This document shows, one piece after another, positions 2,387-40,673 of a stretch of DNA of 64,000 nucleotides. The stretch lies in the IMG/VR virus record IMGVR_UViG_2541047860_000002, one strand, 5' to 3'. The position numbers and the translations under genes are program-made. Every line of letters begins with the position of its first letter. Within the stretch, counting starts at the first letter, position 1. This stretch comes from a virus. Its lineage: Duplodnaviria; Heunggongvirae; Uroviricota; Caudoviricetes. The notes under the pieces were generated by a model. The model made no database searches. It saw nothing but the letters and a program-made list of their open reading frames with translations, and had not been told where the DNA came from.

Positions 2387-3328
2387 TTAACTAACAATCC
2401 AGTCCGTAGCAACAACATCCTCTGGAGCTAAATCAATCGCATGGATTTTCCCATCCCGGATAGTGCGCCAGTGCTTTCGTGATCCACCTTCGGGCCATAC
2501 CCATACACCTTCAGGCCAAGATGCTCGACGGCATACGATTGCATACCCTGTTTTAATCCTCTCTCTGGCGGTATGCAACGACAGGTTTGCCTTTGGACTT
2601 TCAGGCACAGGATGGTGGATTGCCTGAAACATCCCCATCTTTGGATGATACCAGCGTTTATTGCGTGGTTCTGCCTCCGACATCACCTGCTTAAAGGCTT
2701 TCCGGAAGGGGGCCAGAGCCACAATGGAGCGTCGCGCAAGCAAGCCATCGGGGGTCAAAAACTCATGTGTATCGGTGGGAATCCGGTAAGCGTTAACCAG
2801 GTTGCGGCATTTGGCTTCAGTCAGGCCGCATTTCGCCGCCAGCTGGCGGTAGCCAATGTAACCTTCCGGCATATTGCCTTTCTTGATTTGCTCGAGTGTT
2901 TCAGCAACCATCGATACTTGTGCTGATACCTCGGCTACCTGGGCATTTACGGCGTTGATCCGGCGTTCATGCTCAAGATGCATTTGCGCCATTTCAGCCA
3001 GGATTTCGGCTTTTGATTTTAACTGTACCCGGGCATTCTCCAGTTCGCGCCAGCGGTCCACTAGCCGGGCGGTAAATTCGGGAGAGAGCTGCGCGACGAC
3101 AACAATGCTGTCTCGTTTTCCTTGCTCGCCTTCGAAGACATAGACCGGATCTTTGACAACCTTCCCTAAGTTATTGATTCTTTCGACGAACTCATTTTGA
3201 GTTTCTCGGATGACACCGCTAGCCATCATATTGCGAATGGTACGTAAAACATTGCCGTGACGACTACCAACTAACTCTGCAATATCTAGGCTACTCATTG
3301 TCGCTTTTTGAGAGATGGACAGATTCAT
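2387..3328 (-). CDS. Rha-family phage antirepressor-like protein with C-terminal DUF2829-like W-rich extension
   Basis: 313 aa; N-terminal 235 aa is a paralogue of the ORF at 39966-40673; the extra C-terminal ~75 aa (W-x-G-W ... DL ... DWIV) is homologous to the separate ORF 39769-39969. Confidence 0.7.
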   Translation of the reverse strand: MNLSISQKATMSSLDIAELVGSRHGNVLRTIRNMMASGVIRETQNEFVERINNLGKVVKDPVYVFEGEQGKRDSIVVVAQLSPEFTARLVDRWRELENARVQLKSKAEILAEMAQMHLEHERRINAVNAQVAEVSAQVSMVAETLEQIKKGNMPEGYIGYRQLAAKCGLTEAKCRNLVNAYRIPTDTHEFLTPDGLLARRSIVALAPFRKAFKQVMSEAEPRNKRWYHPKMGMFQAIHHPVPESPKANLSLHTARERIKTGYAIVCRRASWPEGVWVWPEGGSRKHWRTIRDGKIHAIDLAPEDVVATDWIVS

Positions 3329-3543
3329 CAGTGCACCTCCACGCAGTTCATCGGCAGATTCCAGTAATTGAGGATCTCCATCGCATCAAGAGTGAAGCGA
3401 GCAGCAAAAATGCAGGGTTCTTCGGGAAGGTATGAGCGCGCCTCTGATTCGGTAGCAGCCATGACGCAGATATACAGGTGCTTTTGGCAGGAATAGAAAC
3501 GCCAGATAAATTCAGAATGAGTTGGGGTAGGGATAGTAGCCAT
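3328..3543 (-). CDS. small conserved prophage protein
   Basis: 71 aa; paralogue of ORF 40673-40897 (shared EFIWRF...QKH...AATE.EARS motif); start overlaps upstream gene stop. Confidence 0.5.
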   Translation of the reverse strand: MATIPTPTHSEFIWRFYSCQKHLYICVMAATESEARSYLPEEPCIFAARFTLDAMEILNYWNLPMNCVEVH

Positions 3544-3855
3544 ATTGGCAGCCTCCTTTTGCTAATTTAAGGAGCTACCGCGTGAGGTCTCAATCTCAAT
3601 GGCGGTAGCACTGGCTGGGTTGAGACTACCGGCGCAAAAGGGAACCGGCCTGCCTTTCGGCAGCCCAGCCAGCACTACCATTGATCTTGGAGCTATACGC
3701 TACGTATGGCTGTGCGATGGCATGACACAAAAAAAGACGCTTTCGGCGTCTGTGTCGCCTTTTGCATTATCCGGGGTCTCAATCCCGGCACCCGTTTTTC
3801 TAAGGTGCCGTAGAAATATACCCCACGATAATGCCAGGGCGCAACAGTCAGTATT

Positions 3856-4023
3856 TTATGCTTTGGCGGATTTTTTCCGGGCTTGCTTGCAGGCGTAGGC
3901 CATTGCTTTAGCTTTCACTTCATCCAGCTTCCCGGTGATCACTTCTTTTCCGAGAGTGACAAACCAGTCATAGCAACCGCCAGTAATGTTCTTGATTTGA
4001 AAGTTGAGGTAGCGAACAGTCAT
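3856..4023 (-). CDS. small hypothetical protein (55 aa)
   Basis: Hand-translated ORF below the 60-aa track cutoff, with a G-rich RBS-like stretch before the ATG. Confidence 0.25.
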   Translation of the reverse strand: MTVRYLNFQIKNITGGCYDWFVTLGKEVITGKLDEVKAKAMAYACKQARKKSAKA

Positions 4024-4344
4024 TTTGACACCCCCAGCGCGAGTAAAGAATGCAGATTATCGCGTGAGTGGTGGACGACGAGTGATGGGAAAAGACTGTA
4101 GTTGTTCATAGTGTAGTGACTCCTTGCTTTCGGAGCCGCCATCGACTGTTCCACGGTCTGGTGGCGGCGCAATAAAGGCTGGAACACCGTGAGTCAACGG
4201 GGGCTTTTCAGCCACCTATATTGCACCGCCATAGGTATGGCGGCGGCAATAATACGAAAAACTAAACAGTTTGTCTCAAAAAGTTGACCGGTGTGCCAAT
4301 CGGTAGTGAATGTACATCGGAGAAATTTTCAATTCAACTTAAAA

Positions 4345-4361
4345 TGTTAGAAAACTAATTT
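4345..4361 (+). promoter_or_regulatory. recurrent motif TGTTAGAAAACTAATTT (candidate operator/promoter element)
   Basis: Full 17-mer; overlaps the stop codon of the Ref-like gene. Confidence 0.4.
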
Positions 4362-4933
4362 ATCAATTCAATTGCCATCTGATACAACGCCATTTCATCG
4401 GCATTGTGCCGCATGAAATCTGCTTTTCCGCCTATTTTTCCATCAGCATGAACAGGGACCAGCCAGGGATATTGTTCTCGGACCTCGGCTGGCGCTGCGT
4501 ACTGGTGGTGCCATTTACACAAAGGGAGGACATATTTATGCGCGTTCTCTGCCGTTCTCCCGAAGATATGGTGCAGGGATACTACTGGGCTATGTTGCCC
4601 GTGAATATGGCAGGCAATGCAGGGGAGAGTACCGATAGCGGTCTGTATCCGGCGTTCATCGGCTGTGAGTGATCTGCCCTTCAGGCCGCGTGACGTGCGT
4701 GTTTTTTTGGACGGAGCGGATACAGCTTTCTCTTTTCTCCGCTGGTCATATTGCTTTGCTTTTTCAATTTTTTTTTGCCGATATTCAGGCGATGCGGCTT
4801 TTTCTCTCGCTCGCTGCTGCTGGCGTTGAGCTTGTTGAAGGCGCTTTGCCCTTTGTTCCTCTCGCCAGGCCGGGTCAGCCAATTTTTGCATGGCTTTTTG
4901 TCTCTGTTTCTCCCAGTAGCTCTGTTTCTGCAT
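4355..4933 (-). CDS. HNH-motif protein, Ref (recombination enhancement function)-like
   Basis: 192 aa; Cys/His motifs (CIAC ... HH ... CKWHH) and a C-terminal block resembling P1 Ref as I recall it; lysine/arginine-rich N-terminus. Confidence 0.55.
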   Translation of the reverse strand: MQKQSYWEKQRQKAMQKLADPAWREEQRAKRLQQAQRQQQRAREKAASPEYRQKKIEKAKQYDQRRKEKAVSAPSKKTRTSRGLKGRSLTADERRIQTAIGTLPCIACHIHGQHSPVVSLHHIFGRTAENAHKYVLPLCKWHHQYAAPAEVREQYPWLVPVHADGKIGGKADFMRHNADEMALYQMAIELIN

Positions 4934-4981
4934 GATGGCTGCCTCTTACTTTTCAGCGATTTTTCTATGATTGATCAAAAT

Positions 4982-4990
4982 TGTTAGATA
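4982..4990 (+). promoter_or_regulatory. recurrent motif variant TGTTAGATA
   Basis: Forms an inverted pair with the site at 5003-5011 in the divergent intergenic region. Confidence 0.35.
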
Positions 4991-5002
4991 TTCAAAATTG
5001 AT

Positions 5003-5011
5003 TTTCTAACA
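5003..5011 (-). promoter_or_regulatory. recurrent motif TTTCTAACA (reverse orientation)
   Basis: Partner of 4982-4990; about 195 bp upstream of the DUF4406 gene start. Confidence 0.4.
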
Positions 5012-5205
5012 CAAAACATTAATATCATTCCTGATAACTGTTTGGAGGACATGATGCTTATAGCTTTAAGTGCGATCCACCAGCCATCTGTGAATGAGAT
5101 TGGCCTGTTCTATGTGTTGTTTTTCGGGGCGTTGGCGCTACTTGAGCTTGGTATTGAGCTTTTCGCAGTGCTTATGTTTTGCGTCACGATTTTGGGGAAA
5201 TTTTG

Positions 5206-5829
5206 ATGGTGAAACGTGTTTTGAAAATTTACATCGCGGGGCCGATGACTGGTTATCCAGATTACAACCGTGCGGCGTTTAATGCGAAAGCGAGCGAGTT
5301 GATGGCTGAAGGGCATATCGTTCTGAATCCAGCGGTGTTACCTGGTGGCCTTTGCCAGAGTGAATACATGGATATTTGCCTGGCAATGGTGCGTTCTGCT
5401 GATGCGATCTATTTGCTCAATCAATGGGAAGAATCGGTTGGTGCTCGTGCAGAGCACGCGTTGGCTGAAAAGCTTGGGCTGACTGTAATTTATGAGTCAC
5501 CAACCAACATTGAATGCCAGGTTGCTACGCATATTTACCGGGAACTGGTCAATGCGTTACGTGATGTTGCTATTGAATGTCACGGCACGGATCAGCTTCG
5601 CGCTCGCTTAAGCCAAACCCTTTCCAGTTACCTGTCTTTGGCTGAAGGATACAACCTCCGACAGCGAAGAATGGTCAGATTAATCACGCGGTTATCTCAA
5701 TCCCTGGCAAATGCTGAACCAACTAATCCGCTACCTAATGACGCAATGAATTATCTGAAGTCATGCGGCGTTGTTTCTGAAGATGCAGTTCGTTTTGTGG
5801 AGTTTATGTCTCAGAGGATGTCGGCGTGA
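5206..5829 (+). CDS. DUF4406-like (nucleoside 2-deoxyribosyltransferase-like) domain protein
   Basis: N-terminal KIYIAGPMTGYPDYN motif typical of DUF4406; start taken at the internal ATG at 5206; C-terminal module shared with the ORF at 11567-12733. Confidence 0.55.
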   Translation: MVKRVLKIYIAGPMTGYPDYNRAAFNAKASELMAEGHIVLNPAVLPGGLCQSEYMDICLAMVRSADAIYLLNQWEESVGARAEHALAEKLGLTVIYESPTNIECQVATHIYRELVNALRDVAIECHGTDQLRARLSQTLSSYLSLAEGYNLRQRRMVRLITRLSQSLANAEPTNPLPNDAMNYLKSCGVVSEDAVRFVEFMSQRMSA

Positions 5830-6143
5830 GCTGGCGGGGATGGGGAAGGGCAGAAATCATGATACTCCGCCAGTGCGCCGGAACTATGACGGTCGAGAGT
5901 ATTGGGAAGCTGATCGGTCGTACCGGTGATGCCGTCAGGACTAAAGCGCGGGAGTTGGGGATCAGCATGATTCTGAAAGGAGACTTTCATCCGTCAGCCA
6001 AATACCGGCAGAGCGATATAGAACTGGCACGGCAGCTTCATCAGTGTGGTGTTCCCCGCCGTGAGATCGCGGAAAAACTCGAAATGCCCCTGGGCATGAT
6101 TAATCAGTACGTTTATTTCGAAAGGAGAGTGTATGAAGTCTGA
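5826..6143 (+). CDS. hypothetical protein
   Basis: 105-aa ORF in the plus-strand early-gene array; start uncertain. Confidence 0.4.
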   Translation: MSWRGWGRAEIMILRQCAGTMTVESIGKLIGRTGDAVRTKARELGISMILKGDFHPSAKYRQSDIELARQLHQCGVPRREIAEKLEMPLGMINQYVYFERRVYEV

Positions 6144-6642
6144 AGGTTTAACGCCCGCACAACTGGCAGAGCGTAACGCTGAGTATGTAACGGAAATTTC
6201 CCGACTTGAGCAAGAACGCTCGGCGCTGGCGGCGGAGAATGCGGGAATAAAGTCTGCAATTCCAGAATCACGGGATATTGAGGATGACAATGACAATATG
6301 GATGACGTATCTCTCGCGGAAGATTTCGGGTTCAATCATGCAATAGAACTGATGAGGAGACGGATTCCTGAAACTCCGGCCACCGACGCTTTCCTGGCTG
6401 AAGTACGTGCGGAGGCACGCAACGAGGGGATTAACTACACCGCAAGCCGTCTTGCTGCTGCGTTCAATCACGGATTTATCAATAAGTCTTTGCGTGAAGT
6501 TTTCGACGTTACACGCATGATTTTGTCAGCGAAAGAAGAGTTGGCTAATGAACCGCATCCGCTTGATGGCCTGTCCGGTGAATATGCGGAGAAATCCCTA
6601 GAAGAATGGGCGGAACAGATTCGCAAAGGAAGCAGCCAGTGA
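6133..6642 (+). CDS. hypothetical protein (acidic, coiled-coil)
   Basis: 169 aa; start preceded by AAAGGAGAGTGTATG cassette. Confidence 0.5.
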   Translation: MKSEGLTPAQLAERNAEYVTEISRLEQERSALAAENAGIKSAIPESRDIEDDNDNMDDVSLAEDFGFNHAIELMRRRIPETPATDAFLAEVRAEARNEGINYTASRLAAAFNHGFINKSLREVFDVTRMILSAKEELANEPHPLDGLSGEYAEKSLEEWAEQIRKGSSQ

Positions 6643-6914
6643 ATATCGACACCACGATAACGATCGATACGGCCCTAAATACCGGACTGGCACTTCTCGG
6701 TTGGCTTTACATCATGTCCAGTACATGGCGATGGCTGGGTTCCATTTTCCTAAAACAGTGGAAAAAACGGCGCAAACAGGAACTACGCCAGAAGGCATTA
6801 GAAGCGTTCTATGACGCATTTGAACTTAGCCGCATAGAACCAGGCACAACAGCCAGGATAGCGACAAAAGGCGACCTGATGATAGTGATGTTCAGACAGG
6901 AGAAAACAAAATGA
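6606..6914 (+). CDS. hypothetical protein
   Basis: 102-aa ORF overlapping neighbours in operon-like fashion. Confidence 0.35.
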   Translation: MGGTDSQRKQPVNIDTTITIDTALNTGLALLGWLYIMSSTWRWLGSIFLKQWKKRRKQELRQKALEAFYDAFELSRIEPGTTARIATKGDLMIVMFRQEKTK

Positions 6915-8132: not shown

Positions 8133-8157
8133 TCAAATCATTTACGCACTCAAAATT

Positions 8158-8167
8158 TGTTAGAACA
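8158..8167 (+). promoter_or_regulatory. recurrent motif variant TGTTAGAACA
   Basis: Inverted pair with 8179-8187, 45-70 bp upstream of the 8230 gene. Confidence 0.4.
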
Positions 8168-8178
8168 TTGATTATAGT

Positions 8179-9225: not shown

Positions 9226-9229
9226 TGAG

Positions 9230-16200: not shown

Positions 16201-16878
16201 TCACTCCACTACAAACCAGTCACATGCCAGTAAGTCGCCTACAGAAGGAACCCACGGAACAACTACACCTTGTGCATTTTTTAAGGCGAAATAAGCACCA
16301 TACGGAACGAGGTCGCCGGGGAAATATCCCTTAATGGCTTCCATTCGTGCCGGGTACTGTCCTTCAGGAACCAGCCAGCAGAATTGGTTTTCGCCGTTCC
16401 ACCCGCGTCGAGCAACTTTCTTGCCATCCTTCAGCCACATCAGCGCGTCAGAAAAGTCGGCTGCTTCAAGGTCGATTTCTTCTTGCTGGGTGGTGATGCC
16501 ACCAGCAGAAATAGTTACGCTCCCGGTAAGATTAATCATCACGCCGTTGTCATCCGTAATGATGACCGTGGTTCCATTTTTGGAGGCGTCGTTAACCAGG
16601 CCATAGCGTTCCTCAAATGGTTTCTCCGGGGCATAGAACAGATAACCGTTTTCATAAACGATCAGATACCCGCCAGTTTTTGGTCGGTGTTTTTGTAAAA
16701 ACATTGCGTCAACACAAACTGTTGCCCCTTTTGGTTCAACGAGTTCGATGCAGCCCCAAAGTGGGGCATCAGTTACTCCGAAAATAACAACATTTTTGAT
16801 TTTCGATGCACTAACGTTTTTGTGAGCTTTGTATTTGGGAAGGAACTTAAAAAGCTCTTTCGTTGCCATGTTATTCAT
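16201..16878 (-). CDS. two-domain protein with C-terminal DUF2829 (Tad2-like) domain
   Basis: 225 aa; C-terminus FSDALMWLKDGKKVARRGWNG ... PWVPSVGDLLACDWFVVE matches the DUF2829 signature; N-terminal ~140 aa unassigned. Confidence 0.6.
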   Translation of the reverse strand: MNNMATKELFKFLPKYKAHKNVSASKIKNVVIFGVTDAPLWGCIELVEPKGATVCVDAMFLQKHRPKTGGYLIVYENGYLFYAPEKPFEERYGLVNDASKNGTTVIITDDNGVMINLTGSVTISAGGITTQQEEIDLEAADFSDALMWLKDGKKVARRGWNGENQFCWLVPEGQYPARMEAIKGYFPGDLVPYGAYFALKNAQGVVVPWVPSVGDLLACDWFVVE

Positions 16879-16892: not shown

Positions 16893-17387
16893 TTATAACT
16901 TTTCGTACTGAAGCGGTGAACGCTTAATTTCAAAGTGGCCTTCCGATGTGCTACCAAAGCCACCAGCACCACGTTCCGTTTCGTTGAGTTCCTCAACCTC
17001 GACTAGTGAGACTTGTTCAACTCGTTCAAAAATTCCTTGCATGACAGCCATTCCAGGCTTGAGACAAACGCCTTCCCCGCCGGGATCAGTAATCAGTTTT
17101 GCCATGATTTCGCCGCGATAATCGGAGTCGATAATTCCTACGCAGTTAGCCAGGCGAGTATGTTTTTTGCAGCCCAATCCGGATCGCGGATAGAGTTTCA
17201 GACACCAGCCGGGCGGGATCTCCATAGCCAGTCCGGTATACACCCACCAGCTTGAGGAAATTGCACCATTGCTATCGACGCATGGTTTTATTTCAACAGC
17301 CTCAAAATCCATCGCCGCCGATCCGGAGGTGGCATAAGCTGGAAGTTTTGCTGCCGGATGTAGGCGTTTCACTTTTACGTAAATCAT
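16893..17387 (-). CDS. dut: dUTP diphosphatase
   Basis: 164 aa with trimeric dUTPase motifs (AMDF, GIIDSDYRGE, RG.GGFGSTS). Confidence 0.9.
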   Translation of the reverse strand: MIYVKVKRLHPAAKLPAYATSGSAAMDFEAVEIKPCVDSNGAISSSWWVYTGLAMEIPPGWCLKLYPRSGLGCKKHTRLANCVGIIDSDYRGEIMAKLITDPGGEGVCLKPGMAVMQGIFERVEQVSLVEVEELNETERGAGGFGSTSEGHFEIKRSPLQYEKL

Positions 17388-18201: not shown

Positions 18202-18259
18202 AGCACCCTCCGAAATAGGCGAGGGTACTTTACAGCAAAGATAACAATCTAAAAAGATG

Positions 18260-18276
18260 TGTTAGAAATTTAATTT
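18260..18276 (+). promoter_or_regulatory. recurrent motif TGTTAGAAATTTAATTT
   Basis: Overlaps the stop codon of the recombinase gene; reads TTTCTAACA toward the 17857-18201 operon on the minus strand. Confidence 0.4.
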
Positions 18277-19487: not shown

Positions 19488-19669
19488 TAAAGTGCCAATT
19501 TTTTTTAATCCATCATAGATTGATGATGACCAGTAACACGTTGCCTTCATGGTCTTTAATTTGCGAAGTGTGGTTTCTACGGTTGGTTTTCTAAAATTGA
19601 TGACAAAAAATCACAGTTCGATCCTTTACTCACTCTGTTATTCGACATAAATTTGTCATAGTAATTTTA

Positions 19670-19686
19670 TGTTAGAAAACTAAATC
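19670..19686 (+). promoter_or_regulatory. recurrent motif TGTTAGAAAACTAAATC
   Basis: Ends 11 bp before the ATG of the 345-aa gene. Confidence 0.45.
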
Positions 19687-24132: not shown

Positions 24133-24525
24133 CTACCAGCGAGACAAACGAACAACATGTTTCACTTTTGCGATCCACTTTCCGCGATAACTATTGATTA
24201 CGGCCTGTGCCAGCTTCAAATTGGCTTCAAAATCAGCCTTACTACCATCAGACTCCACCAGCATTCCTCCATCTATTTCTGGTAAACATAGATAATCCTG
24301 CTCAACCTGCAGCGGCATTGATGGCTCTCTGAATGGCGTTACTTGCTCTGCTTTCCAGCGAAATCTAACCCTCATCCCCCTGGTGGTCATTACTAGATAG
24401 CCTGTTATAGTGCTTTTATGGCCCACATCAGTACGCGTGGCATTGCATGACACGATCTTACAGTTAGCGATAGACCACTCCATATTGGTGGCCTGTTGAG
24501 TGCTTAATTTGGTAGTCCCGTACAT
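24133..24525 (-). CDS. hypothetical protein
   Basis: 130-aa ORF. Confidence 0.4.
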   Translation of the reverse strand: MYGTTKLSTQQATNMEWSIANCKIVSCNATRTDVGHKSTITGYLVMTTRGMRVRFRWKAEQVTPFREPSMPLQVEQDYLCLPEIDGGMLVESDGSKADFEANLKLAQAVINSYRGKWIAKVKHVVRLSRW

Positions 24526-25100
24526 CAGAAAGCCTCCCAGTCAGTCGCGATAATATCCACACCAGTTGCAAACCAGTCTGTCTGCGCCTGTAAATCCCCA
24601 TTCATCATTACCAGGCGAGGCATCACCATCACATCGCACCCTTCCACAATATCGAATGCCTCTTCCGGCAAGAATTCGAAGAGCTTTTCTTTGCTGCCAA
24701 TGCTGCCACGGAACATCGATATATAGCTCCCTTTAGGCCATGATGTCCGCCGGGCATCAAGCCCTTTCATCATCCAGTAAAAAGCCGAGGAAAAAGGGAT
24801 ATTCTTTTTGCCAATGATTACATTATTCGCTTCTGTGTACTTCAGGAACTTAACTAACCTTACCATTGACTCGGATAACGCAACGTATGGCTCATGATTG
24901 ATTGCTGACACGCTTACACCGTGCAATCCAACGCTTACCACTGTCATATCGCCGCTCTGTGCGGTTTCGATATTGACGCCTTTGCGAACTAATGAGGCGT
25001 AAAGTTCCTCTCGCTTTTGGGTCCAGCGTTCCCGCTTCCCTATGAAGTCACTCAAAATGAGATCTTCTTCTGCATATGCGTTATCGTTCGCCATTAACAT
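24525..25100 (-). CDS. two-domain protein with C-terminal DUF2829-like domain
   Basis: 191 aa; C-terminus FYWMMKGLDARRTSWPKGSYI ... TDWFATGVDIIATDWEAF fits the W-rich DUF2829 pattern. Confidence 0.5.
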   Translation of the reverse strand: MLMANDNAYAEEDLILSDFIGKRERWTQKREELYASLVRKGVNIETAQSGDMTVVSVGLHGVSVSAINHEPYVALSESMVRLVKFLKYTEANNVIIGKKNIPFSSAFYWMMKGLDARRTSWPKGSYISMFRGSIGSKEKLFEFLPEEAFDIVEGCDVMVMPRLVMMNGDLQAQTDWFATGVDIIATDWEAF

Positions 25101-28906: not shown

Positions 28907-29053
28907 CTTTAATTTGTTAAATGCTGGTGGGCGAACAATAACCAATAAGTGACTATCAAGCCCAGCAAGCGAAACGTGGGTACTGCCCACCAGCAAGGAA
29001 AATTCTATGTTAAGTTATCTCCACAATCAATACATTCGAATTGTGATTTTAGA

Positions 29054-29062
29054 TTTCTAACA
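29054..29062 (-). promoter_or_regulatory. recurrent motif TTTCTAACA
   Basis: 3 bp before the stop of the 407-aa gene; oriented toward the tRNA cluster. Confidence 0.35.
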
Positions 29063-29064
29063 CA

Positions 29065-30294: not shown

Positions 30295-30311
30295 AAATTA
30301 GTTTTCTAACA
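30295..30311 (-). promoter_or_regulatory. recurrent motif TGTTAGAAAACTAATTT (minus strand)
   Basis: Full 17-mer about 20 bp upstream of the probable start of the 407-aa gene. Confidence 0.45.
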
Positions 30312-30386
30312 TATTTTATTAGTTTGATGACGGTATCGGAAGATGCAATAAACAAAAAACCCGCTAATTGGCTGGTTTTTATGCAA

Positions 30387-30701
30387 TTACTGTGTTGCAG
30401 CCTGATAAATAAGATACGCGATAAATACAGGTACGATGGCCCATTGCAGCAATGAAAGTAGCCTCATTACTGTTATTGGGGTAACTCCATCCACGTATTG
30501 TTTCTCTGACATTTTCCCTAACCAACTAACCGACAACAGTGCCGAGTTTTCCCCCAATTCCAGCTCTCTGAGAGCTTCACGGATTAACGGCGCTGTCACA
30601 GCCTTAACCGGCGTGCTCAACGTGATACTCCGCGTCCTCCCCGCATCGTCAGCGAACGCCAGACTCACATGATATTTTTTGCTCAATGCACAAACTCCCA
30701 A
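30387..30701 (-). CDS. hypothetical protein with C-terminal membrane helix
   Basis: 104-aa ORF. Confidence 0.4.
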   Translation of the reverse strand: MGVCALSKKYHVSLAFADDAGRTRSITLSTPVKAVTAPLIREALRELELGENSALLSVSWLGKMSEKQYVDGVTPITVMRLLSLLQWAIVPVFIAYLIYQAATQ

Positions 30702-30897
30702 TCATCAGCGCTTGCACTTTCCGGGGTTATGTGAACCTTATCGCCAGTAACAATATTGCGAGCTTCAAAACTTCCATTGATACGTTTCGAGATCTCAATA
30801 CATAGAGCCTGCTGCCATGAGCGACGACGAGCGATAGCATTAGTTCCTGCAGGGATAAGTTCTGCCACGTTAAGTAAACGCAAAACGATTTCTCCGT

Positions 30898-32263: not shown

Positions 32264-35200
32264 TTAAGCCGCATCGGCGATTATTTTACGCAGTTCATCT
32301 ACCGAGTAACGCGTAGATACCATCCACGCCGGACGGTCAAAGTCCACATCCGCGACAGGATTCACTTCAAAATTCCAGAAACGCCCGCCAATCTTCTTAA
32401 TCGCGTCTTTGGCGTTCCGTATTGTCGAGGAACCTGGTTGGTCGGCAATGAGATAAACCGCGCCAACGTCCTCGCTGACGCTCCACCAGCGCCCGCGAAC
32501 ACGCGCCTTAGCGCGAATAGGCTTATCATTAACCACAATGATATAGTCATCATTTGCCGCTTCATCAGCTCTGGCTTCAGCCACTGCCGCCTGCTCTTCT
32601 CTTTTGCTTTCAGCCTGCTCAAGCCTTTCCGCGATCTCTGATTCAGTGGCCCCGCCGTTTTTCAGCGATACATAGTCCTGCCACGTTGCCGATTTGAGCG
32701 TATCCGGCAACTCATTCACATAGTCGCCATCTTTCAACTCACGGGCGCGGCGGGTAGCCATTTCTACCAGGCGATTAACAGAAACAGCATCAGCAAAATC
32801 GTCCTTACTAATGTGTTTTTCATCAAATGCATTGATGACAGCCCCCACCTTAATCCACTGTGCTGCCGGTGATTCCAGGGGGTTATCAGCCTGGACAATG
32901 GCGAGTTTCGCTCCATCTACCCCATTATTCGCCAACTGTTCCAGCGCCGCCCATCCATCTGCATCACTGAGTGATTTATATTGCTCAAACAATGCATCGC
33001 GCCAGGCCACCAGCGCAGAACGTGTTTTTTCGATCTTCGCCTTAATTTTCGCGATCTTGACCTGATTAAACATCCGTTCAATATCATCGATATTGCTAAA
33101 GGCTTTCATCCTGCCCTGGAATAAACGGTATGCCAGCACGGTCCTCCAGAATGATTCCAGACCTTCTCCGGACGGTTTACGGAACAAGCTAAGAATATCT
33201 TCAGAAGTGACTTTATTAAGCGAACGACCTGACAGACCACGCCCAGCCATCCAGTTTTCGAACTCCTTGGCAACATCATCCATCGTTGCCTGTGCGCCCC
33301 ATGCCTGCATTCCCTGGATGTAATCATACCCATACAATGCCTGGAGGAATCCCTCTCCGTCCACGATATTCAGCGGGTTATCACTGGCTTGTATTTTTGC
33401 CACTTCACGCTTCAGCGCCTCGTCGTTGCCATCAGGATATATCCATCGTTCAGGTGCTATATCCGATGCTCGCCCGATTTTTTGGCCTATCACGCCATCA
33501 TAGGTCGATGACAGCGCGATCTGCCCATCATCTGTGCGATAGGCCCAGTATTTAATAGCTGATCCACCGCCCCATGCATTACCAGGTTTACCAGCAATAA
33601 CATTCATTACCCCATTGCGAATAGCATCATAGAACTGATCGCGAGTAAGTATTGTTGATAGCTGGTGGCACTGAACACCACGCGCAGCCGTTGCGCGCGA
33701 TTCAGCAACCCCCTCTTCAAAAGTTACCGCTTCAATCACAGAGTCAAACGGCAATGTAACGATTGACCCCGGTGATCGAGCGTAACGACTTGCTCTATCC
33801 AGCCAGGCGATACGACAGATGTATTGTGCTTTTTCACCGTCAATTTTTTCCACCCGGACAATCGCTGTTGTTTCGCGATCATCAATGACTGCACGGTAAT
33901 AACTACCTTTATGCAACAGGATATTCTTGTCAGTGCGCATATATTCCTGTGGGTTCTGAATAACATCGATACTGATATCCAGCACACCAGACTTAATAGC
34001 GCGCTCCACATCACCACGAGAGCGTTTCATTATGGTATCCGCGTCTTTTGCCCTGGTGATCGCAAACCGCAGCACCCGCGCACGTTTTCTGTAGCTACTC
34101 AACTGCTCAAGCGCGTATTTTTGCCCATTCCTGTTCGTACCCGCTTTTATCAGGTCGTCAAGATTGCGCTGGTAATACTCTATCTGTTCCATCGCGCTTT
34201 TCAGTTCTGTCTCCATCATGCCGATATCTTTTCCGGCGGCGTTTGCCGCTTTCAGGTAGATATCGAGAGCATTGTTGGCCTCGCGCTGTGCTTTCAGTTT
34301 CAGACGTTCTTCACGCTCTTGCGCCTGGCGAGCCATGATTGCGCGGCGTTCTTCCGGGTTTGCCGCCAGCATAATGGCGCGTTCATCAGCATCATCCACA
34401 TCACCATTGGCGATCTCTGACATGTCGGAGGTCATCACCATCTTGATCCAGTCTTTCTTACGTTTCAGCGTATCCAGACGGAAGTCGTCGAATGTGCCTT
34501 TGCCACAATAGTAGTGAACATTGACCTTCTCTTGCGGTGAACCTACGCGCGCACCGCGCCCATTTCGTTGGTCGATACTGGCTGGTGTCCAGGGTAGTGT
34601 CAGGTGGTGGATATCGGTTGTCCCGATGTGCAGGTTAATACCTACTTCAGCCTTCTTGTTACAGATTATGATGCGCGTGCGACCTTCGTTATAGTCGGCG
34701 GCAATACCTTCCATGCCCTCAAGGCCAGCATCATTTTTAGCTGAGAGATAATCCTCATATTGGGCAAGTTTGCTGTAGTAGGTTTCCCATGCCCCTTCTT
34801 TGTATTCACCGTTTTTGTTTGGAGTAGGTTCGGTCGGCTTATTCACCTTCTTCAGCTTGATGCCGCCAGCCTGGCTAACTGTCGTCGCATTGATAATGCC
34901 AATCTCCTGCTCCGGCATTTGCAGTGCACTGGCGATAATACGGCGCAGCTTCTGGTGCTGGGCTTTTTCATCAATAAAGACGATCTGCTTACCGTTCTTC
35001 AGACCTTCACGAAGATTTTCGATCAGCGCGGCATACTTCGGCGGGATGGGGTGCGATACCTGCTGCATATCAATACCGGCAGCCGCAATGGCCTTCAGTA
35101 TTTCAGCTTCCAGTTCAATGCTGGCACGTATTTCAACATGCGTCGGATGTTCACTAAAAGCGGTCTTCACTACCTTGCTGGTACGCGTACTGACCAGCCC

Positions 35201-38200
35201 GCCAGCGCCGTCTTCCTCGGCCTCATCAACATCATCTGCCACTTTACCACCAGCTACTTTTGGCAAGGCATCAGCAATAGCTTTTACCTGGTCTGCAAGC
35301 TCAACGGGGAACTGGAATGTAATCGCACTGGCATACAGATCCGGGTCTATAGCAACCTTGTCCATGTCACGGATGATGGAGAAGATGAAATCATCCGGTT
35401 TGTCGTTAGTGATATGCCCGTTTTCATCGACTGTCAGCTCATCATTGCGACTTAACTCCTGAGCACGCTTACGAAGTTCTTCATAAGCAGACTCCTGCTC
35501 CCCTGTCATCGGGATCTGCAAGGTGTTCTCGATGATGTCGGGAATTTTAACCGTCGCTCCGACATCTGCGGCAGTCTTCAGAGTGGTCCAACGATGGAAA
35601 ATACCACGCAGGCCATCAAGGTTCTGGAAGCCCACCAGCCCCTGCTTCTCTTCCACTTCCCCGGAAATTTTCTGGACCTGAACTGTGGCTGTTTTGCCAA
35701 ACACACGAACGAAATCATCAGGCGTAATGATGCCCATGCGCATCCACTCTTCCTGCGGAATGACAGTAGACAGCATGTTGAAGGCATCAATCGGACTGTT
35801 CACCAGCGGAGTTGCCGTCAGCATGACTACACCACGTCCGTTGTTGCGTTTCATCATGTACGCAGCTTTTACAGCCATGTCGCGGGCCATCTTGGATACT
35901 GCCGGGTTAGGCAAATATGCCAGTTGTCCCGCTTCACGCCCGGCATTAAAGGAGTTGCGGTAGTTATGCCCCTCGTCGGCAATCACGCTATCGAAGTTCA
36001 TATCCTCAAAGTACGGGATATTCTGCTTCTTCGTTGTACCGGTATTCGCGGCCTGATCCTTAATCTTGTTCTTCTTCTGTGCATCACGGTGTTTGCCAGA
36101 CGCCAGGTCAAGACGCCCCATTTCCACAGCATTAAAGACAGCTTGCTGTGAGTTCTCCTCGATGGTTTTTTCTCGTAGCGGGATAGACGCGAATTGTTCT
36201 TTTGTCATGATGACCGTTCGCCAATTTGACGACGGGATCATGTTCATGCGCTGAACGATAACGGCGCTGGCGGACTCTTTCACAACATTTCTGGTAAGAG
36301 GCTGCCCGTTACTGTCGAGGCGTGGTTCGCCATTTTCATCAAGCACCGGCGCGGTCAGAATATTTCCGCTGTCATCACGAACTTCATCCAAACCGATAAA
36401 CATCATATTGGCGAAGGCATCAGCACTGTAGAAACTCTGTGCCTCGTGATACCAGTTCTGATAAACCGCCTTCGGAACAACAATACACGTGCGTTTAGTG
36501 CGACCTGTTTCGAAGTTATACGCCTCAAGCGCAAGCGCGGTCGTGGTTTTACCCAGCCCGGTACCAAATCCCATGATGCCGCGCCCATCTTCTGACAAGC
36601 GACGAACTTCTTCATTTTGATAAGTCAGAGGAATGCGCTTTCCACTAATCCCTTCCAGGCCAAGCGGTGCGTTAGAGTGCGTGAACGGAATGAAGCCATT
36701 GAATGCGTCGTTATAGTCACGGGCTATCTGATCCGCCTGCGGGTGGGTGCGTAACCAGTCGTTAAAGCTAACTTCCAGTTGAGCAATTTTATCCAGGTAC
36801 TCGTTAGCGTTCTGCCCACGCGGTTTAACACCGTTCAGGTAGTTTTCTAACTGGTTCAGGAAGCCGTCTTTATTGTTGGCCTTCTTGAACTCATTCCCGT
36901 TTTTGCCGTTTACGGTTCGTAGCTGATAGCCGGTAAATACCCCGTCCTTACCTTCGTAATCGTCCGGAGATACCAGAATGCCATCGACGACCTTCAGATC
37001 AGGTTCAGTGTACTTAAACTCGTCATAGCCCTGCTCTGCCAGGAACTCTTTTATCAAGCGGCGATCCAGCCAGCGGGCATTCAGATTAACGGTGACTTTA
37101 TTTAGTGGCGTGAAAATGCGTTTCTCTTCGATTTTCGCCAACTGACGCTCAAAGTTCGCTTTCTGCTCACCTGTTGACGCATCACGCCAGCCCACCAGCA
37201 ATGCTGTTTTGGTTGCAATATCGCCGCTGGTGGCGCGGTCCATCGGCAGCAGGCAGCCATACCCATCAATAGCGATATCATCAAATTTCGCTAGGTATTC
37301 AAGGGCCGCGTCGTCGTCCTCTGGCAATTCACCAGCAAACGCCTCACGAAAGTCGCCCAGCGTTATAGGATTAAGGGCTACATCACTGAAAAGATGTGCT
37401 ATCACTTGTTCAGGACGTGTAAAGTCAATACCGGCAGCACCATCCGTTACATCAAGTCGCCCTGCCAGAAGGTCAGAAGTGGAACCATCCTGTTTCACAT
37501 TGCCAGTGAACGTCATCCAGTTTTTAGCGCCAGCTTCAGCAAGCCCATTCAGCTTAATCGCGTGCGGTGGTCCATACTTCGCAACTTCTGCTGCCGCCAG
37601 GCGGGATGCATCTGCCAGTTTGTCATCAACGTTCACCCCCAGGTTACGCAAATCAAGTGCCTTGTTGATCAACTGCCCTATCAGCGCACCGCGCATAACG
37701 CGCTCTCTGTCTTTTTCTCGCTGCTTGCCAGCAAAGCGAATCATTGCTGCCACTTCATCACTGACAACCGATGGATAGTCGGACGCGATCGCCGATATCT
37801 GGTCCCATGACAAAGCCAGAATCCCGTTTGTTGACTGGAACGCGATCTGCAGATCGCCAAACGTCGAAACACCATATCGACTTACATCAAGCGCGGAGGA
37901 TTTGGTTGTCGTGTCCTTAACCCATTTCAGGCCATCAAACTCATGCCAGATACCGCCTACAAGGCGTTTATCGCCCACTTTCGCGCCCTGCCATGCCTGA
38001 GTAGTTACGCCGAGCAAATCCCAATTGATGCGACTATCAAAGCGACGAGATAGCGCGGTTTTCATCGACTCATTGGATACACGGCCGTCTTTTTTCACCA
38101 CTAGGGTATTGCGGAAGCTGGTACGTTCCATGTCGCCGTAAACAAACCGCTTCCCTTCGGTTGTAAACCATTTTCCTTTGAGGAAGGTATCCCAAAGGAC

Positions 38201-39100
38201 GTTTGCCGATTTGAGCGTGGCATCATCCGTGTCGGGGATCATCTCCAGGAAGGTTTCCGGGTGTTTACGCAATACCCATACGTCCACCACGGTATCTGTA
38301 CCGGATTCGCTGAACGTACCAGAAGGCATACGATGTGCGGCCAAAAATTCCGCTTTACGGCTGACTTTATCGCGCAATTTTTTGTATTTCGTACCATCGG
38401 TCATGCCATTCGGCACCACCAATACGATAAGCCCACCAGGCTTAACCTTGTCGATCGTGCGCAACACAAAATAATTGCCAACGTTCTTCTCGTTTGCATA
38501 TGCCGGATCAAGCCCGGCAACGCCGGAACGCCCTTCACCAAACGGTACGTTACCAACAGCGTGGTCATACATTGCATCTTTCGCCGCCAGCGCCTCAAAC
38601 GCCCCGATATTCACATCGTCTTCCGGGTGCAAAAGCTGGTTTATTCGACCAGAAATCGGAGACAGTTCGGCGCTGGTCATTATCATGCCCTGCCGTTTTG
38701 TCTCCTGGAAAATACCTGTGCCCGCTGATGGTTCCAGTACGTGCCCGCCATCAATACCGTAGTCAGCAAACAGATCCCATATACCTTCAGCCATAAACTG
38801 TGGCGTGTAGTATTCGTATTGGCTGCCCTCACCATCTGTCAGGCCGCCTTCACCGGTATACCCGGCAAGAATCTGACGTTGTTCGTCAGTTAATTTCGCC
38901 CCATCGAAGCCGGGCGGAAGGGAATTAAGAAGATTTACTGCGGCGTTGTTTGCTGCACGGCGTGTTTTCTGAATACTGACGCCATCGGCTTTCCTGACGC
39001 CAAAGGTCGCAACAGCACGTAATTTATGCAACCGACTAACAATTTCAATCAGTTCGCCTAAGCTGGAGGCTTCACTGATTGAATGAAGTAATTTGTCCAA
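32264..39100 (-). CDS. darB: DarB-like anti-restriction protein (N6-adenine methyltransferase plus DEAH helicase)
   Basis: 2278 aa; methyltransferase motifs (EPSAGTG, NVPFG), Walker A GFGTGLGKT, DEGH box; size and architecture match P1 DarB as recalled. Confidence 0.85.
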   Translation of the reverse strand: MDKLLHSISEASSLGELIEIVSRLHKLRAVATFGVRKADGVSIQKTRRAANNAAVNLLNSLPPGFDGAKLTDEQRQILAGYTGEGGLTDGEGSQYEYYTPQFMAEGIWDLFADYGIDGGHVLEPSAGTGIFQETKRQGMIMTSAELSPISGRINQLLHPEDDVNIGAFEALAAKDAMYDHAVGNVPFGEGRSGVAGLDPAYANEKNVGNYFVLRTIDKVKPGGLIVLVVPNGMTDGTKYKKLRDKVSRKAEFLAAHRMPSGTFSESGTDTVVDVWVLRKHPETFLEMIPDTDDATLKSANVLWDTFLKGKWFTTEGKRFVYGDMERTSFRNTLVVKKDGRVSNESMKTALSRRFDSRINWDLLGVTTQAWQGAKVGDKRLVGGIWHEFDGLKWVKDTTTKSSALDVSRYGVSTFGDLQIAFQSTNGILALSWDQISAIASDYPSVVSDEVAAMIRFAGKQREKDRERVMRGALIGQLINKALDLRNLGVNVDDKLADASRLAAAEVAKYGPPHAIKLNGLAEAGAKNWMTFTGNVKQDGSTSDLLAGRLDVTDGAAGIDFTRPEQVIAHLFSDVALNPITLGDFREAFAGELPEDDDAALEYLAKFDDIAIDGYGCLLPMDRATSGDIATKTALLVGWRDASTGEQKANFERQLAKIEEKRIFTPLNKVTVNLNARWLDRRLIKEFLAEQGYDEFKYTEPDLKVVDGILVSPDDYEGKDGVFTGYQLRTVNGKNGNEFKKANNKDGFLNQLENYLNGVKPRGQNANEYLDKIAQLEVSFNDWLRTHPQADQIARDYNDAFNGFIPFTHSNAPLGLEGISGKRIPLTYQNEEVRRLSEDGRGIMGFGTGLGKTTTALALEAYNFETGRTKRTCIVVPKAVYQNWYHEAQSFYSADAFANMMFIGLDEVRDDSGNILTAPVLDENGEPRLDSNGQPLTRNVVKESASAVIVQRMNMIPSSNWRTVIMTKEQFASIPLREKTIEENSQQAVFNAVEMGRLDLASGKHRDAQKKNKIKDQAANTGTTKKQNIPYFEDMNFDSVIADEGHNYRNSFNAGREAGQLAYLPNPAVSKMARDMAVKAAYMMKRNNGRGVVMLTATPLVNSPIDAFNMLSTVIPQEEWMRMGIITPDDFVRVFGKTATVQVQKISGEVEEKQGLVGFQNLDGLRGIFHRWTTLKTAADVGATVKIPDIIENTLQIPMTGEQESAYEELRKRAQELSRNDELTVDENGHITNDKPDDFIFSIIRDMDKVAIDPDLYASAITFQFPVELADQVKAIADALPKVAGGKVADDVDEAEEDGAGGLVSTRTSKVVKTAFSEHPTHVEIRASIELEAEILKAIAAAGIDMQQVSHPIPPKYAALIENLREGLKNGKQIVFIDEKAQHQKLRRIIASALQMPEQEIGIINATTVSQAGGIKLKKVNKPTEPTPNKNGEYKEGAWETYYSKLAQYEDYLSAKNDAGLEGMEGIAADYNEGRTRIIICNKKAEVGINLHIGTTDIHHLTLPWTPASIDQRNGRGARVGSPQEKVNVHYYCGKGTFDDFRLDTLKRKKDWIKMVMTSDMSEIANGDVDDADERAIMLAANPEERRAIMARQAQEREERLKLKAQREANNALDIYLKAANAAGKDIGMMETELKSAMEQIEYYQRNLDDLIKAGTNRNGQKYALEQLSSYRKRARVLRFAITRAKDADTIMKRSRGDVERAIKSGVLDISIDVIQNPQEYMRTDKNILLHKGSYYRAVIDDRETTAIVRVEKIDGEKAQYICRIAWLDRASRYARSPGSIVTLPFDSVIEAVTFEEGVAESRATAARGVQCHQLSTILTRDQFYDAIRNGVMNVIAGKPGNAWGGGSAIKYWAYRTDDGQIALSSTYDGVIGQKIGRASDIAPERWIYPDGNDEALKREVAKIQASDNPLNIVDGEGFLQALYGYDYIQGMQAWGAQATMDDVAKEFENWMAGRGLSGRSLNKVTSEDILSLFRKPSGEGLESFWRTVLAYRLFQGRMKAFSNIDDIERMFNQVKIAKIKAKIEKTRSALVAWRDALFEQYKSLSDADGWAALEQLANNGVDGAKLAIVQADNPLESPAAQWIKVGAVINAFDEKHISKDDFADAVSVNRLVEMATRRARELKDGDYVNELPDTLKSATWQDYVSLKNGGATESEIAERLEQAESKREEQAAVAEARADEAANDDYIIVVNDKPIRAKARVRGRWWSVSEDVGAVYLIADQPGSSTIRNAKDAIKKIGGRFWNFEVNPVADVDFDRPAWMVSTRYSVDELRKIIADAA

Positions 39101-39250
39101 AGGATTTCCCCCTCTAAACCGTAAAAATTCCGCTATGCGGTACGGTTGAGAGGGTATGGAGAATGTTATTTTCAGGGGGACGATACTACCGTCAAAATCA
39201 CATACTCCCCATAGTTTGCCTACTTATTAACCCATGACCGGGAGAAAAAT

Positions 39251-39736
39251 ATGGCAAACATTGAACCTCGCTGGCTAATTGAAGCCCGTAAGCACATTGG
39301 CCTGACTGAAATAAAAGGCGCTAAACACAACCCTGAAATCGTTCAGTTCTGGCGCGACATCAAGCGCGGCGGAATTAAAGACGATGAAACGCCGTGGTGC
39401 GCAGCATTTGTCGGTGCAATGCTGGAACGTGTAGGCATCCGCTCAACAAGATTTGAGTCGGCAAAATCCTATCTGGATTGGGGCGAGAAATTAGATACAC
39501 CGGCATACGGATGTATCGTTGTATTTACCCGCGTAGGCGGTGGGCACGTAGGCTTCGTTGTCGGACGCCGCGCCAATGGCGATCTGCTTGTCTTGGGTGG
39601 GAACCAGGGGGATGCGGTTAATATTCGCGCATTCCCAACATCAAGAGTGTCAGGCTATCGCTGGCCTGCTGGCGAACCACGCAATACCGCTCTGTTACCA
39701 GTCGGAGACGCAGCAACCTCAACTAATGAGGCATGA
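39251..39736 (+). CDS. putative cell-wall hydrolase-like phage protein
   Basis: 161 aa with a conserved Cys (WCAAFV) and His (GGGHVGFVV) suggestive of a CHAP/NlpC-P60-type fold; assignment tentative. Confidence 0.4.
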   Translation: MANIEPRWLIEARKHIGLTEIKGAKHNPEIVQFWRDIKRGGIKDDETPWCAAFVGAMLERVGIRSTRFESAKSYLDWGEKLDTPAYGCIVVFTRVGGGHVGFVVGRRANGDLLVLGGNQGDAVNIRAFPTSRVSGYRWPAGEPRNTALLPVGDAATSTNEA

Positions 39737-39741
39737 AAAAA

Positions 39742-39760
39742 GCCCCGGCCAGGCCGGGGC
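39742..39760 (-). terminator. rho-independent terminator
   Basis: GCCCCGGCC-A-GGCCGGGGC hairpin with T-run on the minus strand. Confidence 0.55.
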
Positions 39761-39768
39761 ATCACGCT

Positions 39769-39969
39769 TCAAGTCACGATCCAATCATTACCGACAATAT
39801 CAGCCGTCGATAAATCAACTTCCCGGATCTGGAGTCCATTAATACAAAACCATCCGGTAGTAGAGTAATTATCAGGCCAGGCCCATACACCAACACTCCA
39901 TGCTTTACGGCGGCACACTTCAGCCTGTCCTTCCCTGATTTTTTTTACCGCCTGCATGATGTCCATCAC
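39769..39969 (-). CDS. stand-alone DUF2829-like W-rich protein
   Basis: 66 aa homologous to the C-terminal extension of the 2387-3328 protein; start overlaps the stop of the upstream Rha-like gene. Confidence 0.5.
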   Translation of the reverse strand: MMDIMQAVKKIREGQAEVCRRKAWSVGVWAWPDNYSTTGWFCINGLQIREVDLSTADIVGNDWIVT

Positions 39970-40673
39970 TCACCTCCCCAACCGATCACCTGGAATTGCC
40001 CCATTTTTGGGTGATACCAACGTTTTCCTCGGTGTTCAGCCTCCGACATCATCCGGTTAAAAGCATTCATGAAGGGAGATAAGGCGACGATGGAACGACG
40101 CGACAATACCCCCTCTGGAGTTAAAAACTCATGTGTATCTGTGGGAATCCGGTAAGCGTTGACAAGGTTGCGGCATTTGGCTTCGGTCAGGCCGCATTTC
40201 GCCGCCAGCTGGCGGTAGCCAATGTAACCTTCCGGCATGTTGCCCTTCTTGATTTGCTCGACGGTTTCTACCACCTGGCTAACCTTTGACTCAACAACAT
40301 GAAGCCGCTTTTGCTGCTGAACTGCATTTGCAGCCATTGCGGCGATCATCTCTATTTCGGTCAACGGCTGGCGTACTTGTTCTTCCAGTTCGCGCCAGCG
40401 GTCCACCAGCCGGGCGGTGAATTCCGGAGAGAGCTGCGCAACGACAATGATACTGTCACGCTTGCCTTGTTCGCCTTCGAAGACGTAGTGTGAATTTTTA
40501 ACTTTAAATCCTAAGTTATTGATATTTTCGGAAACCTCCATTGGAGGAAGTGGAATAACACCTGATTTACTCAAGCGTTCAATAGTGCGTTTAACGTTAT
40601 CCGGGCGACTTCCCACCAGCTCCGCGATCTCAATGCTGGTCATTGATGGCTTTTCAAGAATGCAGATTTCCAT
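39966..40673 (-). CDS. Rha-family phage antirepressor-like protein
   Basis: 235 aa; paralogue of the N-terminal part of 2387-3328 with long stretches of near-identical DNA. Confidence 0.7.
   Translation of the reverse strand: MEICILEKPSMTSIEIAELVGSRPDNVKRTIERLSKSGVIPLPPMEVSENINNLGFKVKNSHYVFEGEQGKRDSIIVVAQLSPEFTARLVDRWRELEEQVRQPLTEIEMIAAMAANAVQQQKRLHVVESKVSQVVETVEQIKKGNMPEGYIGYRQLAAKCGLTEAKCRNLVNAYRIPTDTHEFLTPEGVLSRRSIVALSPFMNAFNRMMSEAEHRGKRWYHPKMGQFQVIGWGGE

Follow-up and report, generated by a model that had tools for sequence, protein, structure and literature searches.

Two grades of Tad2-like domain in a phage D6-like element: likely nucleotide sponges and shortened domains in C4-controlled immI operons

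The stretch of viral DNA analysed here (64,000 nucleotides of IMG/VR record IMGVR_UViG_2541047860_000002, referred to below as the window) comes from a phage D6-like plasmid prophage of the P1 family and carries four Tad2-like (DUF2829) domains, all encoded on the minus strand, which fall into two grades. Two are canonical: they form the C-termini of a 225-residue protein (copy B, 16201..16878) and of a 191-residue protein (copy C, 24525..25100), and would act as nucleotide sponges. The other two are shortened, or mini, domains located in two immI operons. One is fused to the C-terminus of a 313-residue Rha-family protein, Ant (copy A, 2390..2584, residues ~249-313 of the gene at 2387..3328), and the other is a stand-alone open reading frame (ORF) of 65 or 66 residues (copy D, 39769..39969). 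These mini domains may have been taken over by the immunity circuit. We hold this two-grade account, as a whole, with slightly more belief than doubt. It builds on the homology and boundaries of the domains, the anatomy of the operons and their conservation, all of which were observed. An earlier reading of the same DNA, made without database searches (the sequence-only reading), had listed these four ORFs as carriers of one small domain, and all four are present where it placed them.

Megablast of the window gave 98-99% identity to phage D6 (NC_050154.1/MF356679.1) and only patchy similarity to P1, P7, SJ46 and RCS47. The RefSeq counterparts in D6 of copies A to D are, in this order, orf82 ('anti-repressor Ant', 313 residues), orf114 ('DUF2829 domain-containing protein', 146 residues), orf6 ('hypothetical') and orf17 ('hypothetical', 65 residues). 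B-type proteins were already annotated as DUF2829, their homologues carrying the names 'DUF2829 domain-containing protein' or 'Thoeris anti-defense Tad2 family protein', and seeing orf6 as Tad2-like is routine. What is new is a mini Tad2-like domain, below threshold in Pfam and either 'hypothetical' or unannotated in the records, which occurs in three layouts of a C4-controlled immI operon.

The Pfam family PF11195 (Tad2-like, DUF2829; model length 73) has a gathering threshold of 25 bits. Copy B passes it over residues 141-224 with 80.0 bits (E 1.8e-22), the best match of the four as the sequence-only reading had held, and copy C passes it over residues 103-190 with 39.1 bits (E 1.1e-9). The 66-residue ORF (15.1 bits, E 0.034) and the isolated C-terminus of Ant (12.4 bits, E 0.23) fall below the cut-off, with PF11195 as the top or sole match for both, covering model positions 1-4 to 72. 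Pfam thus bears out a shared domain for copies B and C, and for the mini pair the shared origin emerges only from profile-profile comparison. When a profile of the mini family (5 sequences) was compared with one of canonical Tad2 domains (13 sequences), the two aligned end to end over 65 columns (hhalign 94.9%, E 4.3e-8). The mini profile also reached the protein P0138 at E 4e-4 in a search of 1.84e9 proteins; P0138 itself passes PF11195 with 37.4 bits, and another family member, P0135, scores 23.9 bits. In a profile search of the Protein Data Bank (PDB), 7 of the 8 weak matches of the mini profile were Tad2 proteins. Copies A and D share 39% identity, and each has a match to phrog_7385 (E 1.1e-13 for copy A and 1.8e-49 for copy D). 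Chance similarity was considered and ruled out, the alignment being end-to-end, collinear and transitively supported. As judged from these profiles, the mini copies are homologous to Tad2 though they lie under the Pfam threshold.

The mini family is small, with 7 clusters among 1.84 billion representative proteins in an exhaustive profile search, and a word-indexed homologue search with the 66-residue ORF returned near-identical sequences only. A hidden Markov model (HMM) built from copy B relatives alone misses the mini copies, which explains why ordinary annotation misses them as well. A six-frame HMM scan of the window recovered the same four copies and one weak extra (30683-30883), and is partly circular since the four copies had contributed to its profile. 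NCBIfam and PADLOC contained no relevant family for any of the four, and sequence searches of the PDB gave no match for copy C, its N-terminal part or the 66-residue ORF.

SPO1 Tad2 consists of helix α1, a five-stranded antiparallel sheet and short helices α2 and α3 placed in loops (Yirmiya et al.). It dimerizes via helix α2 and strand β2 and assembles along α1 into a homotetramer with two pockets, in which glycocyclic ADP-ribose (gcADPR) is bound by W25, N26, W73, S76, T78 and D79. In HgmTad2, the substitutions W21A/N22A and S90A/T92A/D93A each abolish binding. The family is functionally very plastic, with a highly variable central insertion, and the characterized sponges are stand-alone proteins of ~90 residues.

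Both SPO1 Tad2 (Gp34.65; 8SME/8SMF/8SMG) and HgmTad2/AcrIIA7 (8KBI-8KBM) belong to the same Pfam family as the copies described here, which would have the same fold, and equivalents of W25 and D79 are found in all four. The pocket positions were carried over from SPO1 Tad2 through alignments. In the order W25/N26/W73/S76/T78/D79, copy B reads W N W S G D, retaining 5 of the 6, and the reference ModTad2 reads W N W S S D. Copy C reads W P W T V D, the 66-residue ORF W S V S A D and the Ant C-terminus W P I A E D. Asn26 is therefore absent from copy C and both mini copies, and Trp73 from both mini copies. That the insertion between β2 and the strands after it varies is known for this family; the long insertion with which HgmTad2 binds cyclic dinucleotides is missing in all four copies. 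With respect to size, copies B (225 residues), C (191 residues) and A (within 313 residues) all differ from the stand-alone form of ~90 residues, and the 65-residue ORF alone stands free.

The sequence-only reading had proposed all four copies as candidate sponges, and the support is uneven: good for copy B, leaving copy C plausible and the mini copies weak or doubtful. Copy B is most likely a nucleotide sponge of the ModTad2 type, because fold and pocket are conserved and its closest characterized relatives are sponges. Its Tad2 domain (residues 141-225, 16204..16458) matches ModTad2 (9eib/8v3e) at 46-50% identity (phmmer, E ~6e-21). The full-length AlphaFold2 (AF2) model has a predicted local distance difference test (pLDDT) score of 74; its best Foldseek match is 9eib, ModTad2 with histidine-ADP-ribose (His-ADPR), at E 7.7e-8, and its target-normalized template modelling (TM) scores of 0.75-0.88 to 24 Tad2 chains place it within the Tad2 fold. 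ModTad2, from a Myroides odoratus prophage (8V3E, apo; 9EIB, His-ADPR), sequesters His-ADPR as well as cUMP/cCMP and blocks Pycsar, an E. coli Pycsar included. The C-terminal 88 residues of copy B align with it end to end at equal length, and both proteins contain the GWNG and W-x-P-S-V-x-D motifs (PWVPSVGD in copy B). They differ in that copy B has ~135 additional N-terminal residues, Asn/Gln at the equivalents of Thr65/Asp67 and a Gly for the Ser of TWTPSVSD. Furthermore, ModTad2 is a stand-alone 88-residue tetramer with shown binding of His-ADPR and cUMP/cCMP, whereas copy B is known from sequence and model. The D6 protein orf114 belongs to the same gene family and sits at the same locus, between the dUTPase and isaA-like genes, but with its 146 residues lacks most of the N-terminal domain of copy B.

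Copy C (phrog_7362) is also plausible as a sponge, with an altered pocket. Its Tad2-like domain (residues 103-190, 24531..24794) has a slightly longer central insertion and retains the α2/β2-β3 region as in copy B. The alignment (SWPKG, DWFATGVD) places a Pro at Asn26, unlike SPO1 Tad2, and a Val at Thr78. Copy C is a more divergent paralogue that probably differs in ligand specificity. The N-terminal parts of copies B and C are unrelated (E 8.3), consistent with the statement of the sequence-only reading that the domain ends two unrelated proteins.

Homologues of copy B are frequent in 90-100 kb Escherichia/Salmonella contigs. Among otherwise similar proteins of P1/D6-like plasmids (P0005-P0105), the β2-β3 loop of the B-type domain occurs in at least 4 unrelated alleles of different lengths, and in some alleles Lys takes the position of the pocket Asn (WKGE). 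The pattern is suggestive of a cassette-like diversification. Fusion partners of the Tad2 domain in related plasmids are dUTPase, tail-fibre repeats and a crAss001_48-like domain. The dUTPase::Tad2 fusion forms one 241-residue protein (P0058) in some E. coli plasmids. The Tad2 domain is thus a promiscuous fusion module, and a single fusion is weak evidence for a functional link.

The mini copies depart further from the canonical form. They are ~21 residues shorter than SPO1 Tad2 between the two Trp positions and lack the β2-β3 loop including helix α2 (~20-25 residues), so that the dimer-interface region of SPO1 Tad2 is absent. Unlike SPO1 Tad2, they also lack Asn26 and Trp73, that is, 2 of the 4 main ligand-contact residues, the D6-type copies having Val or Ile at the W73 position. 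The AF2 model of the 66-residue ORF shows the topology α1, β1-β4, a short helix and β5.

Both layouts of the mini gene are stable. Plasmid records with the split layout number at least 110 and those with the fused layout ~92; the fusion was intact in 8 of 8 sampled plasmids and the stand-alone ORF likewise in 8 of 8 (16 of 16 together). The fused mini domain is under purifying selection, with a ratio of nonsynonymous to synonymous polymorphism (pN/pS) of 0.15 at a pS of 0.39. In D6-like plasmids, the pS of the stand-alone mini ORF is 0.033, compared with 0.257 in the neighbouring ant, a value ~8 times lower, suggesting either that recombination has a boundary here or that the nucleic acid itself is constrained. 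The 313-residue fused Rha/Ant gene is intact in the DNA and listed in GenBank CP057592, but is missing from the PLSDB gene tables of all 5 sampled RefSeq records (L011-L014, L016), where it may have been flagged as a pseudogene or simply omitted.

By their RNA content, both cassettes that contain mini domains are P1-type immI operons controlled by C4 antisense RNA. In each of them, the C4 RNA is followed by an icd-like ORF and then by a Rha-family protein, all on the minus strand. The first operon, immI-a, comprises the C4 RNA at 3598..3685 (Rfam RF01695, 76 bits, E 4.6e-13), an icd-like gene of 71 residues at 3328..3543 (D6 orf83, annotated Icd-like) and the fused ant gene at 2387..3328 (PF09669, Phage_pRha, 36.9 bits; phrog_63 anti-repressor, E 3e-62). 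The second, immI-b, comprises the a1/b1 targets of the C4 RNA at 41098..41150 (RF03163, 54.4 bits), the C4 RNA at 40945..41030 (RF01695, 68.8 bits), an icd-like gene of 74 residues at 40673..40897 (from the D6 annotation) and a 235-residue ant gene without mini domain at 39966..40673 (D6 orf18; PF09669 26.4 bits, below the cut-off). The two Rha-like proteins are paralogues with 66% identity over 230 residues, in line with the paralogous cassettes of the sequence-only reading, and the c4/icd region is 93% identical to P1 at the DNA level. The duplication of the c4-icd region in D6-like plasmids was noted before (PMC6799933).

The mini gene closes immI-b. The sequence-only reading described a 66-residue ORF overlapping the ant stop; the overlap (TGATG) is present, and the likeliest start is the ATG at 39966, which gives 65 residues, as in D6 orf17. 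This ATG is preceded by the Shine-Dalgarno sequence GGAGGTGAG, and a perfect intrinsic terminator (39742..39760, minus strand; 8 G-C pairs, a 3-nt loop and a T-run) begins 9 nt past the stop codon. The Shine-Dalgarno sequence, the overlap and the terminator together identify the small ORF as the translationally coupled last gene of immI-b. An isrK-family small RNA match (3730-3808, minus strand, 59 bits, Rfam) lies just upstream of the C4 RNA in immI-a, at the place that the c4-a1b1 element takes in immI-b, so that the two operons differ in their upstream RNA elements.

As in the immI operon of P1 (c4, icd, ant1/ant2), the operons here have a C4 RNA with a1/b1 targets, an icd-like ORF that overlaps the gene after it, an antirepressor-position gene downstream and a repressor-operator-like motif upstream. 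Unlike P1, the genome has two immI operons, with a Rha-family protein at the ant position, and these carry an extra mini Tad2-like domain, fused or as the last gene, that is not part of the P1 operon as described.

The most distant immI-type mini proteins, P0135 and P0136, provided a third layout. They are encoded by two divergent D6-like elements of 88-90 kb (L018 and L019) with ~77% nucleotide identity in the capsid region. In both, Rfam places a1/b1 targets before the C4 RNA, and the mini gene starts ~50 bp after the latter. No icd and no Rha/Ant gene was found at the mini locus of these two elements, and downstream of C4 no gene other than the mini gene was seen. No product of this neighbourhood diverges faster than the mini protein, with 38% identity where flanking genes have 54-86%. 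The collinearity of its N-terminal leader with the Ant linker hints that the gene arose by deletion of the Ant body. The mini protein can evidently work without an adjacent Ant, judging from this arrangement. The sequence-only reading had taken the fused and split layouts to suggest a functional link to the antirepressor. The presence of a mini gene behind C4 without Ant shows that the conserved partner is the C4-controlled operon and not the Ant polypeptide, and the promiscuous fusions make any single fusion weak evidence of a link. No link between DUF2829 and antirepressors was found in the literature searched.

We also searched the window for sites at which these operons might be repressed. 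The P1 C1 operator consensus did not occur above chance in the window. A de novo search revealed a different, asymmetric 18-bp motif, AWTTRDWTTTCTAACAYA, with 8 sites against 0 expected (4343-4360, 4996-5013, 18258-18275, 19668-19685, 29047-29064, 30296-30313, 41242-41259 and 42446-42463). Upstream sites were found for c1, ref, repL, the two immI operons and the operon of dut and copy B, and those at c1, ref, repL and immI mirror the positions of P1 operators. The motif is probably the predicted operator of the D6 C1 repressor. The putative operators of interest are at 4343..4360 (minus strand) upstream of immI-a, at 41242..41259 (plus strand, exact match) upstream of immI-b and at 18258..18275 (minus strand, exact match), 56 bp upstream of the orf117-orf116-dut-copy B-isaA-like operon. 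From these positions, a repressor would control the copy B operon and the two immI operons, and lack of repression would turn them on. No site of this type precedes copy C in the motif scan of the window. In lysogens of prophage Kapi1, a Tad2-like gene has the highest expression of all prophage genes. The mini payload would differ from it in being subject to tight C4/C1 shut-off in lysogens, which suggests that its expression is incompatible with lysogeny.

We propose the following explanation, in which the ligand, the time of expression and the part played by the mini domains in the circuit are what we infer. Copy B would be made once repression is absent, at infection or induction. Its oligomer would most likely sequester signals derived from proteins with TIR (Toll/interleukin-1 receptor) domains (His-ADPR or gcADPR), possibly also the Pycsar nucleotides cCMP/cUMP, and would thereby blunt abortive infection of the Thoeris or Pycsar type. 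The mini domains would be shortened derivatives of the Tad2 fold that have lost the β2-β3 loop with α2, Asn26 and Trp73, and that appear in three layouts, fused to the Rha-like Ant, translationally coupled after Ant, or alone directly behind C4. The immunity circuit may have co-opted them as effectors or accessory modules, possibly for an oligomerization or repressor targeting that anti-repression needs, in place of a role as canonical nucleotide sponges. We favour such a circuit role because half of the key contacts and the dimerization element are lost, because the mini domains are confined to immI except for P0138, and because one of them is fused to a DNA-binding-type regulator.

Several observations weigh against this account. 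With regard to copy B, the protein is a multi-domain one of 225 residues, compared with the stand-alone ~90-residue sponges characterized so far; its Dec-like domain (described below) and linker could impose an oligomeric state other than the Tad2 tetramer; and the changes of Thr78 to Gly and of Thr65/Asp67 to Asn/Gln make its ligand not predictable. With regard to the mini domains, W25, D79, the N-terminal helix α1 and the C-terminal DW motif are retained, 3 of the 5 mini-family members (P0135, P0136 and P0138) have Tyr or Phe at the W73 position, and the domains may thus possess a modified pocket. The model of the 66-residue ORF stays at pLDDT 65, a consequence of there being only 7 clusters and hence no deep alignment, and has no significant fold match. 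The stand-alone mini ORF has an uninformative pN/pS of 0.76 on very few substitutions among D6-like plasmids. Finally, the operator motif is a prediction, 'Ant' is named by position and family alone and is not homologous to P1 Ant1/2, and being expressed early from immI would fit an anti-defence protein as well.

The last point leads to the alternative that survives best, namely that all four copies are nucleotide sponges, the mini domains representing a streamlined Tad2 whose remodelled pocket binds another immune signal, delivered from immI as the first operon transcribed on infection. The homology of the mini domains to Tad2, the residues and elements they share with it, the plasticity of the family and its variable central insertion would all agree with this, as would the short loop alleles even among canonical B-type proteins. 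The fast evolution of the mini gene relative to its neighbourhood is what an arms race would be expected to produce, and P0138, equally short, passes PF11195 and sits in an unrelated, ordinary phage gene row outside immI. On the other hand, the dimer-interface region and two of the four main contacts are gone, and the W21A/N22A change abolishes binding in HgmTad2; the D6-type copies have Val or Ile at W73; and one mini copy is covalently joined to a 245-residue DNA-binding-type protein. Moreover, the distribution is very narrow, and a harmless sponge has no obvious use for a tight antisense shut-off. We regard sponge activity of all four copies as unlikely, yet deserving of serious attention.

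Somewhat more tentative is the idea that the mini domain was exapted from a sponge into the core effector of the immI switch, either as a minimal antirepressor or as a nucleotide sensor coupling induction to a host immune alarm. The first option is suggested by L018 and L019, where no gene but the mini gene was seen behind C4. If exaptation is true, it would link anti-defence sponges directly to lysis-lysogeny control. A purely sensory role, in which the mini domain binds an immune or stress nucleotide of the host and so turns on the immI effector, with prophage induction upon an abortive-infection alarm, appears improbable. The mini domain does descend from a nucleotide-binding fold, keeps part of the pocket and is fused or coupled to a predicted antirepressor in an operon controlling induction. 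Yet the proposal is purely inferential, L018 and L019 hold no Ant to regulate, the lost pocket residues speak against high-affinity binding, and a precedent was not found in the literature searched.

The N-terminal part of copy B raises the question of whether this protein is associated with the virion. Its β-rich domain (residues 10-96, 16591..16851; pLDDT 83-92) resembles the capsid-binding oligonucleotide/oligosaccharide-binding (OB) fold of phage L Dec in Foldseek (6e3c, E 8.7e-4, 28% identity over 82 columns), and it is followed by a β-rich linker of low confidence in the model. A close homologue, P0008, has phage tail-fibre repeats (PF03406, 68 bits). Copy B could then be a decoration or fibre-like protein whose Tad2-like domain binds a sugar-containing surface ligand or travels with the particle, and not a cytoplasmic sponge. 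However, the Dec match is marginal (phmmer E 0.014) and can be taken as a lead only; the gene lies beside the dUTPase gene (16893..17387, minus strand; PF00692, 54 bits), directly upstream in the same operon, and beside small accessory genes and a cre-like recombinase gene, outside the morphogenesis modules; the 146-residue form of D6 lacks most of the N-terminal domain; and the nucleotide pocket residues are conserved. A virion role is in our view slightly less probable still than the sensory one, and we retain the sponge reading of copy B. The least probable proposal, that the small ORF is what is left, in decay, of a formerly fused gene, or else arose by chance and has no function of its own, could appeal to its pN/pS, to frameshifted or truncated variants in databases (P0002, P0003 and P0137) and to its being left unannotated by PGAP in 2 of 3 sampled RefSeq plasmid records, but is countered by the strong Shine-Dalgarno sequence, coupled start and own terminator, by its intactness in all sampled cassettes and the 165 member sequences of cluster P0001, by the retention of all family-invariant residues at its distance from the fused paralogue, and by stand-alone orthologues that two lineages, only 38% identical to each other, have kept behind C4.

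Few phage counter-defences are as widespread as Tad2 sponges, whose range of ligands is still being mapped. With copy B, the ModTad2 (His-ADPR/Pycsar) clade would gain a representative from an Escherichia/Salmonella phage-plasmid, unusual in its multi-domain form, and the hypervariable loop alleles of copy B would be useful for the study of how specificity evolves. At least 110 sequenced plasmids have the mini form under C4 antisense control, in an operon of the lysogeny/lytic decision. A function in the immunity circuit would mean that gene regulation has recruited a sponge fold; should the mini form still be a sponge, it would define a minimal Tad2 and a new pocket. Either outcome is testable in D6, a cultured phage.

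Two further genes flank the end of immI-b. A gene for a DarB-like methyltransferase/helicase of 2278 residues (anti-restriction; 32264-39100, minus strand) adjoins the operon, and a gene for a TIGR02594-family peptidoglycan hydrolase (39251-39736, plus strand) is convergent on the terminator of the mini ORF.

Finally, the weak extra hit of the six-frame scan (30683..30883, minus strand; 66 residues, D6 orf11, phrog_7206) lies in the darB-ulx-pmg operon and shows the pattern ...IARRRSW...TPESASADDWEFVH. It gave no match to the canonical Tad2 profile or to Pfam, and in a tblastn search of deposited phages, it and the mini ORF were both present in D6 only. Its similarity to the mini profile (E 0.0056; by hhalign 52.8%, E 1.4e-4 over 60 columns) makes it a weak candidate for a fifth mini copy.

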